Below are positions 39,168 to 47,052 of a stretch of DNA of 64,000 bases, piece after piece. The stretch comes from Chloroflexota bacterium (GTDB lineage Bacteria; Chloroflexota; Anaerolineae; B4-G1; SLSP01), in contig JAIOAS010000001.1 of the NCBI GenBank assembly GCA_019873725.1, forward strand, positions 40,257 to 104,256, written 5' to 3'. The position numbers were made by a program, and so were the translations under genes. How positions within the stretch are numbered: the stretch's first letter is position 1; each line of letters begins with the position of its first letter. Under the pieces are notes generated by a model that did no database searches, was not told the DNA's origin, and worked only from the letters and a program-made list of their open reading frames with translations.

Positions 39168-39317
39168 AAAAAATCGAAAAACGCGACGCGCTTCGCGCGG
39201 ATGGGACCTTCGGCCTGCGGCGGTCAGGCGTTGGGCAAACATCCGCGCTCTTCCAGGTTATCCCAAAGGTCCAAAGGCCAAAGGGCCAAATTACAAAGCG
39301 GGCGCTGCGCGCGATGG
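39168..39317 (-). other. conserved ~150-nt 3' element downstream of VR1, ending in a GC hairpin plus U-tract (terminator)
   Basis: Near-identical to 44044-44193 downstream of VR2. Minus-strand end reads CGCGCGAAGCGCGUCGCGUUUUUCGAUUUUUU. Confidence 0.6.
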
Positions 39318-44193: not shown

Positions 44194-47052
44194 GGAGACG
44201 ACCACCCGAAAACCGAAGTTCCAGTTCCCGTAGTACGGGAGGTTCCAGTTGCGACAGGCGCAGCGGGCGTTGTAGCGATTGAAGTGGAACGCGCCACCCC
44301 GCAACACACGGGCGATCCCATCTCCCGCTTCCAAGTCCTCCCGCTTATCACCTACTCGGTATGGATATTTGAAATCTGCCTTGTTCCAACCCTTACCCCA
44401 CAAACTCCGTGTCCACTCCCACACGTTGCCCACCATATCCAGACAGCCAAACGGCGACACGCCTTCCGGGAAAATCCCCACTGGTGTTGTGTCCCCTACG
44501 CCCAACTCGGCTGAATTGCAATATCCCTCTTTCCAGGTATCTCCCCACGGATATTCGCGTTTATCCACTGCACCCCGTGCCGCCTTTTCCCACTCCGCTT
44601 CACTGGGAAGATGCACGATGCAAGAAGCAGGAAGAAGAGACACTTCTTCAAAACCCCCGTCGCGCCGCACCCGTATCTTGCATCCTGCCTCTTGCATCTT
44701 TTCGGTCAGCCAGCGACAATAAGCTATTGCGTCGTGCCAGGTCACGTTCACCACCGGATGACTTTCCAGTCCGCGCGGAACTTTGCCGTTCTCCCAATGG
44801 TCTGGCGCTTCGTACTGACGCGCTTCTACAAAGAGTCGGTACTGCGTGTTTGTGACGGGAGCTTTGGCGATCCAGTAACGCTCAAGATGGACTCTGTGCA
44901 CAGGCTTTTCGTTATCGCCGCCTTTCTCACTCCCCATCCAGAACTCTCCTGCTGGAATCTCCACCCACTCCGGCTCGCCATACGGCATAGTCCAGTAACC
45001 TGCCCCGGCGCGTGCTAAAGCTTCCATCGCCGCGCCGCGTTGTTCTACCCAAGCTCTCGTCCCTAGCTTGCCTGCCAAACGGCTCCAGGCCGGGCGGGGT
45101 TTTTCCAAATCCCGGCGCAACTGGCGCTGTACCTCGGCTTCCAGTTCACCCTCCACCCGGCTACTGCCCACATCCCGTAGCATCTCTGCCGCCAGGATCA
45201 GGTTGTGGTAGGGCATCGGCTGGCGCTTGCACCCGGCAATCTCCCGCACCAGGCGCGTCGTCCGCTCACGGCTCTGTGTGCTCAAATAACCAGCTTGCAG
45301 CAAAATCGCCTCGCGCCACCAGGGTTCCCCACAGCGCGCCAGAGTATAGGCCACGTAATCATCCCGCGCCGCCATTCCAAGCGCCGCCAGATACTCCTGA
45401 AAGGTCAGGTGGCTAAAAGCATACACACCTTCGCCACGCGCTACGAGCAGTCCGGTGCGTTCTTCGACGACGTGGAGAAAACGATCCACGGCCTGAGAAG
45501 CCTGGCGCCACTCCAATCCTAGTTCGTGGAAGTATTCCCCCAGCAGGCGGCGCAGGTCATCAGCCGCCATTTCCTTCTGTTGTGCTTCGTGCATCGTTAA
45601 CGCAATACGCTGCAACAACAGCTTTTTGTCACCTGCGTCAAACGGGCGGTCGGTCAGAATAGGCGTTTCTTGCACGCCGCGCGCTTCGTCCCACTTGCCG
45701 AGCAATACATCTATCGCTTCAGCATAGAGTTCAGCCCGGCGATCGGGTAACTTTACCCGGTCCCGATGCACCAGGGCTATCACGGTCAGCAGCAGTGGAT
45801 TGAGCGCCAGTTCACGCACCCGCGCGTTGGTTTGGATCGCGGTGAGTAATTGCTGCGTCTGCGCCTCGGCGCGTGTCATCGCACTCTCGCCGGGTCCCAT
45901 TTCGCCCACGGCTACCGCCAAATGCCAGTTGCGCAAGAATTGCGCGATGTCCGCGTCGGTGAAGTCGCGCACGGTGGTCACGGTGTAATCGCCGCCCAGG
46001 CGCGCCGGGCCAGTGTACCCCACGATCCGGCTGGTGACGATGAATCGGCACGTTGGGTAGGCCGTGGTGATAGCTTCTACCAGGCGCGCCACCCGTCTGC
46101 GTAAGTCGGGGTCCGCCACTTCATCCAGGCCGTCGAGCAGCACTACAGCTTTGCCGGATTCCAGATAGGGGTCAAAGAAATCCCCAGGCAGATGCACACG
46201 CTCTCCGGCAAGCATTTGGCGCAGGTATTCGACCAGCAAGCCGCACCCTTCAGTCCCTTCCTCGGCAGGACAATGCGTTTTGATATACGCCGCCAATCGG
46301 CGTAAAGGGATGAGCACCGGCAACAAGCCGCTTTCGGCAAGCCCCAGGCGCGTGGCGAGCAGGTTGTCGCCTTCGGCCATCGCGCGGGCGTAGAGCAGTG
46401 TCAGGTAGCGCAGCAGTGTGGTCTTGCCGCTGCCAGGATCGCCCAGCACGACCAGGTGCAGGTGTGCATCCAGCGCCTCGTTCACGCTGACCGTGACGGT
46501 CTCGGTGTGCGATTGATCGGCGACCGCAAACCCTTCGCGCAAGCCCAAGTCCAGCCGACGAGTAGCAAACTCGCCCGGCGCGTGGCGCATTTCCTCGGCC
46601 AGCCATTCTTCCTCGGCGCTGACCACGCGTTGGCGGGTGGCACGCAACGTCACGTAGATTTGCTCAAGTTCGATGCTCACCAGCTTGCCGCCAGAGCGAA
46701 TGCCCTGTAGGGCCAGGTAGCGGTTTTGAGCGATCAGATGTCGCAGGTAGCGCGCCAGGGCTGAGGCCGGGTCTACGGCGGGCGTTTCCACTGGAGGCTC
46801 GCCCACAATGACTCTGGCCCCTTCACCGGCAATAATGATGTGTCCACCGATGTTGGTTTGTTCTTTCACCTGCTGTTGCTGTTGATCGAAGACCACGCGT
46901 GCCGGTTGTGCTTGCTCTAGCGCTGCTATCTGCGCCTGCATAGGAGCCAACATCTGCGCGATCATCTCTGGCCTCAGACCTGGTGTTGCTTCCAGTTGGC
47001 GGCGCGTGGCTTCAAGGGTTTGGCGTAAGGCTTGTGGCGTCAGCTCACTCAT
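44167..47052 (-). CDS. NACHT-family STAND NTPase with C-terminal FGE-sulfatase domain; DGR target 2 (paralog of 39291..42041)
   Basis: P-loop HLVVLGDPGSGKTTLLRYL. FGE-sulfatase C-terminus. N-terminal Q-rich motif VVFDQQQQQVKEQTNIGG. Start set at MSELTPQ (ATGAGTGA overlap with the stop of the upstream 160-aa gene). Confidence 0.8.
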   Translation of the reverse strand: MSELTPQALRQTLEATRRQLEATPGLRPEMIAQMLAPMQAQIAALEQAQPARVVFDQQQQQVKEQTNIGGHIIIAGEGARVIVGEPPVETPAVDPASALARYLRHLIAQNRYLALQGIRSGGKLVSIELEQIYVTLRATRQRVVSAEEEWLAEEMRHAPGEFATRRLDLGLREGFAVADQSHTETVTVSVNEALDAHLHLVVLGDPGSGKTTLLRYLTLLYARAMAEGDNLLATRLGLAESGLLPVLIPLRRLAAYIKTHCPAEEGTEGCGLLVEYLRQMLAGERVHLPGDFFDPYLESGKAVVLLDGLDEVADPDLRRRVARLVEAITTAYPTCRFIVTSRIVGYTGPARLGGDYTVTTVRDFTDADIAQFLRNWHLAVAVGEMGPGESAMTRAEAQTQQLLTAIQTNARVRELALNPLLLTVIALVHRDRVKLPDRRAELYAEAIDVLLGKWDEARGVQETPILTDRPFDAGDKKLLLQRIALTMHEAQQKEMAADDLRRLLGEYFHELGLEWRQASQAVDRFLHVVEERTGLLVARGEGVYAFSHLTFQEYLAALGMAARDDYVAYTLARCGEPWWREAILLQAGYLSTQSRERTTRLVREIAGCKRQPMPYHNLILAAEMLRDVGSSRVEGELEAEVQRQLRRDLEKPRPAWSRLAGKLGTRAWVEQRGAAMEALARAGAGYWTMPYGEPEWVEIPAGEFWMGSEKGGDNEKPVHRVHLERYWIAKAPVTNTQYRLFVEARQYEAPDHWENGKVPRGLESHPVVNVTWHDAIAYCRWLTEKMQEAGCKIRVRRDGGFEEVSLLPASCIVHLPSEAEWEKAARGAVDKREYPWGDTWKEGYCNSAELGVGDTTPVGIFPEGVSPFGCLDMVGNVWEWTRSLWGKGWNKADFKYPYRVGDKREDLEAGDGIARVLRGGAFHFNRYNARCACRNWNLPYYGNWNFGFRVVVSPPREAPAL
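44194..44314 (-). other. DGR variable region VR2 (3' end of the NACHT-FGE gene 44167..47052)
   Basis: Aligned to TR. Differences occur only at TR adenines (coding strand). The VR2 peptide AFHFNRYNARCACRNWNLPYYGNWNFGFRVV compares with VR1 AFFDDRIYARCAFRFRYYPLNWFRLIGFRVV. Confidence 0.85.

Follow-up and report, generated by a model that had tools for sequence, protein, structure and literature searches.

The 64-kb window of DNA analysed here (the whole stretch, to which all positions refer) carries what is very probably, at about 0.85, a complete diversity-generating retroelement (DGR) with two NLR-like sensor genes as its targets of diversification. The functional unit is a seven-part cassette that spans positions 38773-47527 and lies entirely on the minus strand (Table 1). 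An initial annotation had placed the unit at 39291-47052. These bounds proved too short, as the cassette also includes a bacterial Death-like domain 1 (bDLD1) adaptor gene at one end and a small gene at the other. The DGR appears to be chromosomal and to form part of a STAND/NLR-type conflict (immunity) cassette.

Table 1. Features of the DGR cassette, in window coordinates
Feature	Position	Strand	Details
Small gene, 111 aa	38773-39108	minus	N-terminal motif MTIFDQRGQTVTYQYN (39061-39099), then four-helix bundle
Conserved VR1 3' flank	39167-39317	minus	mini-hairpin GCGC-GCA-GCGC (39302-39312), stop codon, TTTGG x4 array (39262-39290), second hairpin with T-run (39181-39199)
Target gene 1, 915 aa	39291-42038	minus	ATG 42038, AAGGAGG upstream; Pfam NACHT 3.2e-9, FGE-sulfatase 5.5e-57; NACHT motifs GKAGSGKTT and LLDGLDEV; shared motif TIYDQRDQTVTTQTNIAGD (41877-41915)
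VR1	39318-39438	minus	18 differences from TR, 18/18 at TR adenines
Spacer (Sp)-like structured RNA	42120-42294	minus	directly 3' of TR, structure reaching about 42048; duplex 3' arm 42207-42219; covarying stem-loop 42246-42265; lineage-specific inserted hairpin 42144-42195
TR	42301-42421	minus	30 adenines, 13 AAY (Asn) codons
Bracketing-duplex 5' arm, GCGGGGATCGGCG	42428-42440	minus	pairs with 42207-42219
bAvd (accessory variability determinant), 119 aa	42459-42818	minus	Pfam PF22296, 2.2e-21, above cut-off
DGR reverse transcriptase, 351 aa	42921-43976	minus	Pfam RVT_1; IGNLTSQ (43365-43385), YVDD (43266-43277)
Conserved VR2 3' flank	44043-44193	minus	mini-hairpin GCGC-GAA-GCGC (44178-44188), stop codon, four tandem TTTGG units (44138-44166), second hairpin GCGCGAAGCGC with T-run (44057-44075), terminator-like
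Target gene 2, 961 aa	44167-47052	minus	ATG 47052; Pfam NACHT 3e-11, FGE-sulfatase 7e-55; NACHT motifs GDPGSGKTT and LLDGLDEV; shared motif VVFDQQQQQVKEQTNIGG (46852-46890)
VR2	44194-44314	minus	14 differences from TR, 14/14 at TR adenines
bDLD1 adaptor gene, 160 aa	47045-47527	minus	Pfam PF20689, E 2.6e-12, above curated cut-off; C-terminal BASS3-like motif IIYDQRGQQVVGTQINVAG (47096-47137); stop codon and target 2 ATG overlap by 8 nt (ATGAGTGA)

Central to this reading is a 121-nt repeat, found by a repeat search in three copies that align without gaps: one template repeat (TR) and two variable repeats (VR1 and VR2). The TR is non-coding, rich in Asn codons and situated beside a DGR-type reverse transcriptase (RT) and an Avd gene. 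Each VR ends 27 nt upstream of the stop codon of a target gene, within the FGE-sulfatase domain. When the TR is aligned with both VRs on the minus strand, all 32 mismatches fall on TR adenines, and none of the 91 non-A positions is altered; for VR1 alone, the hypergeometric probability of 18/18 mismatches on A is 7e-14. Between VR1 and VR2 there are 26 differences. These counts, together with the coordinates and Pfam domains, bear out what had been read from the sequence at the outset, i.e. a 121-nt TR with an Asn-rich translation, two VRs of the same length at the 3' ends of NACHT and FGE-sulfatase genes, mismatches limited to TR adenines, and independent diversification of VR1 and VR2. A search of the window with an A-masked TR pattern found no additional VR. 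In translation, the TR has 18 codons that contain adenine, none of them convertible to a stop codon by mutation of A, and a potential diversity of ~5.6e16 protein variants per VR follows from these 18 variable codons.

The RT has both the IGNLTSQ and the YxDD sequences ascribed to it initially, and its best match among solved structures is the Bordetella phage DGR RT (8ub7_A, E 5.6e-47; group II intron RT, 2e-17), which identifies it as DGR-type. The 119-aa gene described as Avd-like is a member of the bAvd family, with structural matches to PDB 4dwl (Bbp7) and to the Avd chain of 8ub7. Close relatives of the RT number in the thousands, with hosts in Chloroflexota, Competibacter, Nitrospirales and KSB1; the closest relatives of the present host bacterium are all Chloroflexota (Anaerolineae-like). 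The 80 genome loci examined mostly contain TR/VR pairs, and the A-specific pattern recurs in dozens of RT relatives. Is the RT-avd-TR order atypical, as had been thought? The order itself is correct, but it stands out only when the Bordetella phage prototype is the yardstick: of 52 RT relatives in which the position of the TR could be classified, 24 show RT-avd-TR and the other 28 avd-TR-RT.

Cis RNA elements are present around the TR, in the form of a structured spacer and of pairing across the TR. The duplex that encloses the TR has an energy of -24.7 kcal/mol. In an arm-swap test of 53 loci, arms from the same locus gave -24.2 kcal/mol and swapped arms -17.4 kcal/mol (p 6e-20). A covariance model of the spacer, built from 16 other loci with the window left out, has a single match in the window, at the position shown in Table 1 (50.5 bits, E 1.7e-10). 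In 76 of 80 relatives it has a single match, invariably beside the TR, and this holds for both gene orders. Covariation is pronounced, with 93% of cells paired compared with 32-51% in slid controls, and the fold z-score is -5.5; no Rfam family matched the spacer RNA. The TR-bracketing duplex agrees with the 'cPRT Stop duplex' that Handa et al. (bioRxiv 10.1101/2023.10.23.563531) reported to be conserved along with downstream stem-loops, and the features are analogous.

Is the element active in nature? The present locus is known from a single assembly, and the evidence for activity comes from a sister lineage with an 87% identical RT and all seven cassette genes in unchanged order. Two samples of this lineage differ at 22 of 13,450 nt; 21 of the differences are in one VR, and 21/21 are at TR adenines. 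As differences between samples are almost confined to TR-adenine positions of one VR, they show directly that the element is active in this lineage. The upstream VR alone varied; the downstream VR did not differ among the three samples in which it is covered, which indicates that individual VRs can be quiescent. One could propose that the DGR in the window is a fossil, whose VRs were diversified in the past and are now ordinary fixed alleles of an inactive element. The invariant sister VR is in keeping with this, as is the single assembly, in which present-day activity is not visible. The proposal appears unlikely, however. Intact versions of the RT, Avd, TR, spacer RNA and bracketing duplex are present, all in line with the family consensus, and activity is demonstrable in the sister lineage, which has the same cassette. 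Moreover, both VRs equal the TR at 91/91 non-A positions although the genes are otherwise only ~36% identical, which argues for recent homing.

The proteins encoded by the two target genes share a tripartite layout: an N-terminal helical segment with a short shared motif, a central NACHT, and a C-terminal FGE/CLec domain that carries the VR, the FGE-sulfatase domain being of the C-type-lectin fold. Pfam NACHT scores of both are above cut-off, and Walker A and B are intact. An N-terminal or enzymatic effector domain was not recognised in either target, and with the translations read by eye, no signal peptide or membrane segment was apparent at either N-terminus. The targets had been taken for duplicated paralogues. 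They are paralogous, but at 36% amino acid identity they are distant paralogues and not the products of a recent duplication. In the 80 relative loci, 66 open reading frames match the middle part of target 1, which contains NACHT; those examined are 900-1100 aa in length and also have FGE-sulfatase.

The two genes added to the unit encode candidate signalling partners. A bDLD1 gene is found at the equivalent place in the sister locus. The small protein has a motif that is predicted to be disordered and a confidently predicted four-helix bundle (AF2 pLDDT 84.6); its predicted structure gave no significant fold match. Its family comprises 87 clusters and the module is present in 635 representative clusters, and small-protein genes adjoin NACHT-FGE genes in other genomes as well. 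The small protein represents a stand-alone copy of this module, which in other contexts is the C-terminal part of caspases and of AbiTii proteins.

Prominent in the cassette is a BASS3-like motif of ~20 aa, common to the bDLD1 adaptor, both targets and the small protein. An HMM made from the small-protein family alone matches target 1 (E 5e-5) and the bDLD1 C-terminus (0.05), and hhalign of the motif gives a probability of 88% (E 3e-6) for target 1 and a weak 22% for target 2. The window has four copies of the motif, all in these four cassette genes, although the regular expression used for the count was written after the four copies had been seen, so that the chance estimate is optimistic. 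Direct comparison shows 13/17 identity to a published BASS3-like peptide. No Pfam EAD family matches the adaptor that is shared in the window. At the sister locus, the bDLD1 protein is connected with one target through EAD7 and with the second through the motif.

A role of the targets as immune sensors seems moderately probable by analogy with related systems. Alternatively, the DGR may be real and its targets may be regulatory or signal-transduction proteins that tune physiology and do not sense invaders, as proposed for cyanobacterial DGRs; regulatory pathway tuning by such targets is put forward by Vallota-Eastman et al. 2020 (PMC7517822). In keeping with this, a domain search found no nuclease, TIR or protease domain fused to either of the present targets. 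This alternative has a low probability nonetheless, as the partners are death-like (bDLD1) adaptors, and the motif and four-helix-bundle module is elsewhere fused to caspases and to AbiTii abortive-infection domains. Other defence and conflict genes abound in the window (BrxL, a sub-threshold PglZ match, EAD9-CHAT caspase, NB-ARC-TPR and iSTAND), and bacterial NACHT proteins are experimentally antiviral, as cited in PMC10907252.

The DNA that flanks the VRs is conserved as well. As candidate parts of a target-recognition element (IMH with hairpin or cruciform), both VRs have a GC-rich end of homology and, 6 nt downstream, a 4-bp mini-hairpin with a GNA loop, which is conserved in the sister locus. 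Among VRs of relatives, such a hairpin is found in only 11/64, and most have CTGR tandem arrays there. Tandem 7-9-nt arrays 3' of the VRs are found in the RT lineage, with CTGR units in most relatives and TTTGG units at the present locus. The conserved DNA that holds them is a previously unreported feature, and the arrays may constitute a target-recognition element for retrohoming, in place of the phage-type hairpin. The two targets are nearly identical only in a block of ~400 nt around each VR that reaches beyond the TR homology, which indicates that gene conversion or selection acts on the VR flanks. These blocks would also suit a reading of the 121-nt copies as ordinary repeats kept alike by duplication or gene conversion, with a coincidental or compositional A bias, but that reading is refuted by the mismatch spectrum, in which TR/VR differences at non-A positions are absent, and it accounts neither for a non-coding, Asn-codon-rich TR without possible stops beside a DGR-type RT and Avd nor for the same A-specific pattern in dozens of relatives.

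How might such a DGR, with two NLR-like targets, work? The Bordetella phage DGR and published comparative work suggest a scheme. The transcript would cover the avd 3' end, the TR and a structured spacer of ~250 nt, with the 42428-42440/42207-42219 duplex enclosing the TR and the spacer bound by the RT-Avd complex. The spacer would cis-prime cDNA synthesis, and the TR would be copied with random misincorporation opposite adenines. By retrohoming, the cDNA would take the place of the homologous 121-nt VR with which one or the other target gene ends, presumably guided by the GC-rich 3' end common to TR and VR together with the conserved 3' flank of the VR, which has the mini-hairpin and TTTGG array. 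Up to 18 codons could be rewritten, giving ~6e16 variants per gene, in the putative ligand-binding face of the C-type-lectin-fold (FGE-sulfatase) domain. Each target is envisaged as a cytoplasmic NACHT NTPase with the variable domain as sensor, and ligand binding would be expected to cause its oligomerisation and signalling. The signal might pass via the BASS3-like amyloid-type motif common to the target, the co-transcribed bDLD1 adaptor and the four-helix-bundle protein, and be directed towards cell-death or abortive-infection effectors. This signalling step, i.e. templated amyloid-type assembly of DGR-diversified sensors via the motif, is the most tentative one, with chances somewhat short of even.

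The architecture has already been published (Kaur et al. 2021; Dore et al. 2024), and the locus is a well-preserved further example. DGRs of the NACHT and lectin-fold kind were described in 2020-2024 in filamentous and multicellular bacteria, and STAND NTPase-FGS/CLec targets of DGRs have been regarded as putative hypermutating antigen sensors (PMC8195603; PMC10907252). Both the architecture and these papers support the view, already taken in the initial annotation, of DGR-driven hypervariation of intracellular NLR-like receptors. Dore et al. present the immune role as a proposal and state that no CLec-bearing STAND protein has been studied by experiment. DGR-diversified STAND/NLR sensors are the closest bacterial analogue so far proposed to a hypermutating antigen receptor.

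In architecture and host range, the locus resembles the cellular DGRs of clade 5/5D (Dore et al. 2024, PNAS, PMC10907252), e.g. Thiohalocapsa PB-PSB1 DGR 3 and DGR 6. Both have one RT-Avd-TR set for two targets, targets in which the NACHT/nSTAND NTPase is central and the VR lies in a single CLec (FGE) domain at the C-terminus, filamentous or aggregate-forming hosts that include Chloroflexi, adapter-domain proteins encoded next door, a neighbourhood rich in conflict systems, and naturally diversified VRs of unequal activity within a locus (here, in the sister lineage). The adaptor differs, being bDLD1 and a short BASS3-like motif rather than EAD8 with a trypsin-like peptidase, and the present cassette has no internal peptidase gene. 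The STAND NTPase-FGS conflict systems with DGR (Kaur, Iyer, Burroughs and Aravind 2021, eLife, PMC8195603; Kaur et al. 2020, PMC7159879) share the NTPase and FGS (FGE-sulfatase) architecture, an adjacent RT and four-helical accessory protein, the 'EAD principle' of the same adaptor on NTPase and partner proteins, death-like domains as adaptors, and at least two NTPase-FGS copies per organism. In the window, however, the shared adaptor is a motif of ~20 aa and not a Pfam EAD family.

With the prototype, the Bordetella phage BPP-1 DGR, the locus shares an RT with [I/V/L]GxxxSQ and YxDD, an Avd partner, adenine-specific transfer from TR to VR, and a VR placed C-terminally in a protein of the C-type-lectin fold, after which comes a GC-rich element containing a small hairpin. 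By position and features, the structured spacer RNA 3' of the TR and the pairing across the TR are alike as well. The phage-borne element diversifies a tail-fibre protein, whereas the present one is cellular, has two intracellular NTPase targets and is arranged target-RT-avd-TR-target. The flank hairpin of the phage VR is longer than 4 bp; the present VR flank has a 4-bp mini-hairpin and a tandem array.

NLR-associated bacterial amyloid signalling, with BASS motifs and Bell effectors (Dyrka et al. 2020, bioRxiv 10.1101/2020.01.06.895854; Dyrka et al. 2021, PMC8086366), is similar in having a short Q/N/G-rich motif common to the N-terminal region of an NLR-type NTPase and the ends of neighbour-encoded proteins, and in its occurrence in multicellular prokaryotes. 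The cassette motif is close to an archaeal NLR-side BASS3-like peptide, KSRFDQRGQKVIGQQINVAGDATLP of Methanothrix, which forms amyloid-like aggregates in vitro as judged by FTIR and Congo red (PMC8086366). A Bell (HeLo-like) effector partner with a C-terminal motif was not found in the cassette; the partners are the bDLD1 adaptor (motif C-terminal) and the four-helix-bundle protein, which lies outside the canonical BASS effector layout because its motif is N-terminal and it is not a Bell domain. The NLR sensor is here a DGR-diversified lectin fold in place of TPR/WD repeats. The locus and its sister offer a compact, fully intact seven-part cassette in which TR, spacer RNA, bracketing duplex and VR flank are clearly delimited, and with sister-lineage activity and candidate signalling partners, it should be a good template for reconstitution. 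The shared amyloid-type motif provides a concrete, testable hypothesis for signal transmission by such sensors. No paper in the literature searched connects DGR sensing with prion-like NLR signalling. If amyloid-type signalling does occur, it would join DGR 'adaptive' sensing and prion-like NLR signalling, so far treated separately, in one operon-sized unit.

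A 121-nt sequence is present in the window in three copies without gaps, as established by a repeat search and alignment. The middle copy contains 30 adenines, and the outer copies differ from it at 18 positions (39 kb) and 14 positions (44 kb). All 32 mismatches lie at adenines of the middle copy, with 0 of 91 non-A positions changed; the probability that all 18 mismatches of the 39-kb copy fall on A is 7e-14 (hypergeometric). Because the differences are confined to adenines, the middle copy is the template repeat (TR) and the outer copies are the variable repeats VR1 and VR2, with 26 differences between the two. 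Masking the TR at A and scanning the whole 64-kb window revealed nothing beyond the three known copies. The TR in frame has 18 A-containing codons, none able to mutate to a stop, and about 5.6e16 protein variants are possible per VR, as computed from the TR codons. The initial annotation had described one TR and two mutually different VRs with every mismatch at a TR adenine, and had named a three-way alignment with a count of A and non-A differences as its check; the alignment, now run, agrees with it at 18 of 18 and 14 of 14 positions.

The reverse transcriptase (RT) has the Bordetella phage DGR RT as its best solved-structure match (8ub7_A, E 5.6e-47), with group II intron RTs far behind (2e-17). 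The YxDD and IGNLTSQ motifs and the Avd-like 119-aa gene recognized earlier were confirmed, as was the location of the VRs at the 3' ends of paralogous NACHT plus FGE-sulfatase genes, the distance from VR end to stop codon being 27 nt in both targets. The Walker motifs of both NACHT NTPases are intact, and the FGE-sulfatase is a C-type-lectin-fold domain. The element shows the defining DGR features of RT, A-confined TR/VR pairs, Avd, VR placement and RNA elements around the TR, and the earlier interpretation, that it diversifies intracellular NLR-like receptors, is supported. Target 1 and target 2 have 36% protein identity overall. A block of ~400 nt (39167-39565 versus 44043-44441), consisting of ~125 nt upstream of the VR, the VR, the stop codon and ~150 nt downstream, is 93-100% identical outside the TR-A sites. 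The two targets are, to judge from these comparisons, old paralogues with a homogenised 3' end. PADLOC defence-system models revealed nothing beyond P-loop noise in the targets, Pfam searches (E up to 10) found no EAD or effector domain in their N-termini, and the first 130 aa of target 1 as a homologue query gave a single, uninformative match.

Coordinates and assignments of genes and repeats in the window
Feature	Position	Strand	Assignment or remarks
Small gene, 111 aa	38773-39108	-	~180 nt downstream of target 1
TTTGG x4 units, VR1 flank	39262-39290	-	3' of VR1
Target 1, 915 aa	39291-42038	-	ATG with AAGGAGG before it; NACHT + C-terminal FGE-sulfatase
VR1	39318-39438	-	121 nt
TR	42301-42421	-	121 nt
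bAvd, 119 aa	42459-42818	-	PF22296, 2.2e-21; PDB 4dwl and 8ub7 Avd chain
DGR reverse transcriptase, 351 aa	42921-43976	-	Pfam RVT_1; IGNLTSQ and YVDD
TTTGG x4 units, VR2 flank	44138-44166	-	3' of VR2
Target 2, 961 aa	44167-47052	-	NACHT + C-terminal FGE-sulfatase
VR2	44194-44314	-	121 nt
bDLD1 (bacterial Death-like domain 1) gene, 160 aa	47045-47527	-	PF20689, 2.6e-12
EAD9-CHAT caspase	52846-54369	-	
NB-ARC-TPR STAND protein, 1231 aa	55050-58745	-	weak bDLD1 match
vWA CoxE-like	58752-59864	-	
AAA ATPase	59840-61078	-	
EAD9-iSTAND	60786-61925	-	
EAD9 protein	61825-62814	-	

Relatives of the RT at >=70% identity number in the thousands. Scanning GTDB species representatives with the RT yielded 80 loci, the nearest RT among these representatives being 75% identical. 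The loci are overwhelmingly from Chloroflexota MAGs (Anaerolineae, Caldilineae, Promineofilum), with a few from Competibacter, Contendobacter, Nitrospirales, KSB1 and others. In 54 of the 80, self-BLAST picked up TR/VR pairs with an A bias, and several loci have two or three VRs. The middle part of target 1, which contains the NACHT, has 66 matching ORFs across the loci; the ones inspected have lengths of 900-1100 aa and an FGE-sulfatase as well. The order of RT before avd and TR had been regarded as atypical, but among 52 loci classifiable by TR position 24 share RT-avd-TR and 28 have avd-TR-RT; the order is therefore normal within this RT lineage.

How far does the cassette extend? The unit had been drawn at 39291-47052; the genes listed there stand, but the extent does not, as the unit also includes the bDLD1 gene and the small gene. 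The bDLD1 gene is directly upstream of target 2 and overlaps its ATG by 8 nt. The small protein belongs to a conserved family of ~116 aa (87 clusters), and its gene is again found directly after NACHT-FGE genes in other genomes (L081/L082, L086 and L087). Four metagenome samples yielded the nearest relative of the entire locus (RT 87%, Avd 90%), in which all seven parts recur in an unchanged order: bDLD1, NACHT-FGE, RT, avd, TR/spacer, NACHT-FGE and small gene. This sister locus also shows a second Avd-like gene (PF22296/PF05635) on the opposite strand, ~1.6 kb past the small gene (L092:12585-12944, L091:16777-16941); no counterpart was seen at the matching place in the window. A 1316-aa ORF just upstream of the cassette (47653-51603, minus strand) was considered as a further member and left out, because it is without relatives in the 80 loci and the sister locus. 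Its long N-terminal half is Q/S/E/G-rich, and its C-terminus resembles a HerA/FtsK-like P-loop ATPase (weak PADLOC HerA and Pfam DUF87 matches).

Adenine-specific retrohoming by this type of cassette is directly evidenced in nature by the sister lineage. Its TR is identical in all four samples. Two of its sequences, L091 and L092, have 22 differences in 13,450 aligned positions; 21 of the 22 are in the upstream VR, each of them at a TR adenine. The other VR, downstream, shows no difference among the three samples that include it, and the two VRs of the sister cassette are unequally active. For the window's own copy, intact parts and a perfect TR/VR match at non-A positions are the only signs, and indirect ones, that it may be active as well. 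A third sister sequence, L093, has an extra cluster of ~30 substitutions relative to L092 (11861-12014), in a GD_AH-domain gene outside the DGR cassette; it looks like a recombination tract or strain mixture unrelated to the DGR.

The 260-nt interval from the TR to target 1 has a fold far more stable than that of shuffles (z = -5.5). When TR-downstream regions of 22 relatives were aligned, conserved blocks and compensatory changes became apparent. A covariance model of a 117-position core, built from 16 loci with the window left out of training, has one significant match in the whole window (42120-42294, minus strand, 50.5 bits, E 1.7e-10). Among the relatives it is found in 76 of 80 loci, exactly once in each and always directly 3' of the TR, in both gene orders. 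In the alignment of these matches 93% of cells are paired, versus 32-51% with slid partners, and 12 of 14 pairs are changed on both sides. In addition, ~13 nt just upstream of the TR (42428-42440) pair with a conserved spacer block (42207-42219). In 53 loci this TR-bracketing duplex is more stable with its own arms than with swapped arms (-24.2 versus -17.4 kcal/mol, Mann-Whitney p 6e-20), and covariation is extensive at the central six positions. In the DGR RNAs described by Handa et al. (bioRxiv 10.1101/2023.10.23.563531), the TR is followed by a structured spacer that contains stem-loops, and TR-upstream sequence forms a ~13-bp duplex with TR-downstream sequence; the window spacer and duplex correspond to these features. 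No Rfam 15 family covers the spacer element at gathering thresholds. The miRNA-hairpin matches from a permissive Rfam scan of 41950-42550 are spurious, far below threshold, and there are no tRNAs in the window.

In the downstream part of the ~400-nt block, about 100 nt are also kept in both sister-lineage targets, whose proteins are only 40-53% identical to the window targets. This flank carries a GCGC-GNA-GCGC mini-hairpin 6 nt past the VR, the tandem TTTGG units and a second, terminator-like hairpin, GCGCGAAGCGC, with a T-run after it. That the sequence is conserved past the end of the TR homology, whether coding or not, points to a cis-acting element, and we infer a role in target recognition. 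The relatives have, directly 3' of the VR, tandem units of 7-9 nt ending in CTGR, e.g. CTCTGAACTCTGATTACTCTGG (L005:64-110, L068:5416-5460). Of 60 such arrays in 1.06 Mb, 36 follow a detected VR within 60 nt (36 of 65 VRs), and some six more are at the ends of target genes without a detected VR. In the window this place is taken by the TTTGG units. A phage-type GC hairpin was rejected as a general VR-flank feature of the clade, being present in 11 of 64 VRs only; the CTGR/TTTGG arrays may replace it in target recognition. This genome often has tandem repeats with units of 7-8 nt between its genes (33976-34012, 34047-34125, 35674-35703, 36678-36708, 42873-42917 and 43980-44054), e.g. GCTCATTC-like units in the gap from target 2 to the RT, TATCAGC units in the one from the RT to avd, and an array of TCCTGCC x11 near 34.1 kb. 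Thus, caution is needed before the VR-flank arrays are called DGR-specific in this genome.

The 64-kb window is rich in conflict systems. A separate EAD9-linked system occupies 52846-63948 (minus strand), and the weak bDLD1 match of its NB-ARC-TPR protein is a possible tie to the DGR cassette with its bDLD1 adaptor. A low-GC block (49-53%; 3592-19273, minus strand) has a BrxL Lon-like protease, a weak sub-threshold PglZ match, a class-V aminotransferase/cysteine desulfurase, a PAPS-reductase-like protein and two DUF4007 proteins; its 1401-aa and 1145-aa proteins have no Pfam matches. It may be a BREX-like or DNA-phosphorothioation-like defence island. Genes at 29248-35626 match type II/IV secretion T2SSE and T2SSF and a CpaE/ParA-like ATPase, and are presumably Tad-pilus-like. 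Amid them is a 265-aa ORF (33164-33961, minus strand) with a serine-recombinase 'Recombinase' domain (PF07508, 1e-16), which may be a mobile-element remnant.

What might join the proteins of the cassette? A motif of ~20 aa is shared by the adaptor, both targets and the small protein. An HMM of the small-protein family, limited to its 32 N-terminal residues and built without the targets, matches target 1 (aa 43-62 of the scanned ORF, E 5e-5) and the C-terminus of the bDLD1 protein (E 0.05); hhalign gives a probability of 88% for target 1 and 22% for target 2. The pattern [FY]DQRxQxVxxQxN[IVA][AG]G, derived post hoc from these matches, has four occurrences in the six-frame translated window, all in the cassette. 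In other genomes the HMM picks up NACHT-FGE, NACHT and TPR proteins in their N-terminal regions, and a segment immediately C-terminal to a caspase domain. The motif is not covered by Pfam EAD families; identity with EAD7 was rejected, as in L081, from another genome, EAD7 aligns to another segment. A full-text match to FDQRGQ led to Dyrka et al. (2021; PMC8086366), who class the peptide KSRFDQRGQKVIGQQINVAGDATLP, from the NLR side (Methanothrix soehngenii AEB69175.1), as a BASS3-like motif of amyloid signalling and report beta-cross FTIR signatures and Congo-red staining for it. Compared directly, the window bDLD1 motif YDQRGQQVVGTQINVAG is identical to this peptide at 13 of 17 positions.

AlphaFold2 predicts residues 1-22 of the small protein (the motif) to be disordered, followed by a confident four-helix bundle (pLDDT 84.6), for which the PDB offers generic four-helix bundles only, none at E <= 0.001. 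The module of motif plus bundle (~116 aa) is absent from Pfam. An exhaustive profile search places it in 635 representative clusters, and it often makes up the C-terminus of a larger protein; those sampled (P0222, P0284, P0229, P0223, P0272) include caspases (Peptidase_C14), AbiTii abortive-infection proteins, TPR proteins and an ATPase-caspase fusion. The sister bDLD1 protein carries the motif and an EAD7-like segment that is also in one sister target, an instance of the 'EAD principle' of Kaur et al., whereby the same adaptor is found on an NTPase and on partner proteins. In view of the motif instances, the likeness to the Methanothrix peptide, the module fusions and the sharing of EAD7, the motif is proposed to be a homotypic, possibly amyloid-type, link that would join the hypervariable sensors, the death-like adaptor and the small protein.

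The class to which the cassette belongs, DGR-diversified NLR-like sensors, is important and already published. STAND NTPase-FGS proteins whose N-terminal EADs or effectors vary, and which often go with a DGR RT and its four-helical accessory protein, are reported by Kaur et al. (2021; PMC8195603), who suggest that they are analogues of hypermutating vertebrate receptors. In the literature searched, amyloid signaling and diversity-generating retroelements are named together in two papers only; one is that of Kaur et al., where the term amyloid signaling appears once. Dore et al. (PMC10907252) report N-terminal extensions, uncharacterised there, on many such targets, and VRs that diversify in nature; theirs is the other paper, with amyloid signaling in its reference list only. 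The cassette is not a canonical BASS/Bell pair, because its partner proteins lack the Bell domain, but it may work like one. To the known systems are added here the extended cassette, the link through an amyloid-type motif, as proposed, defined RNA and DNA cis elements, and natural activity in a sister lineage.
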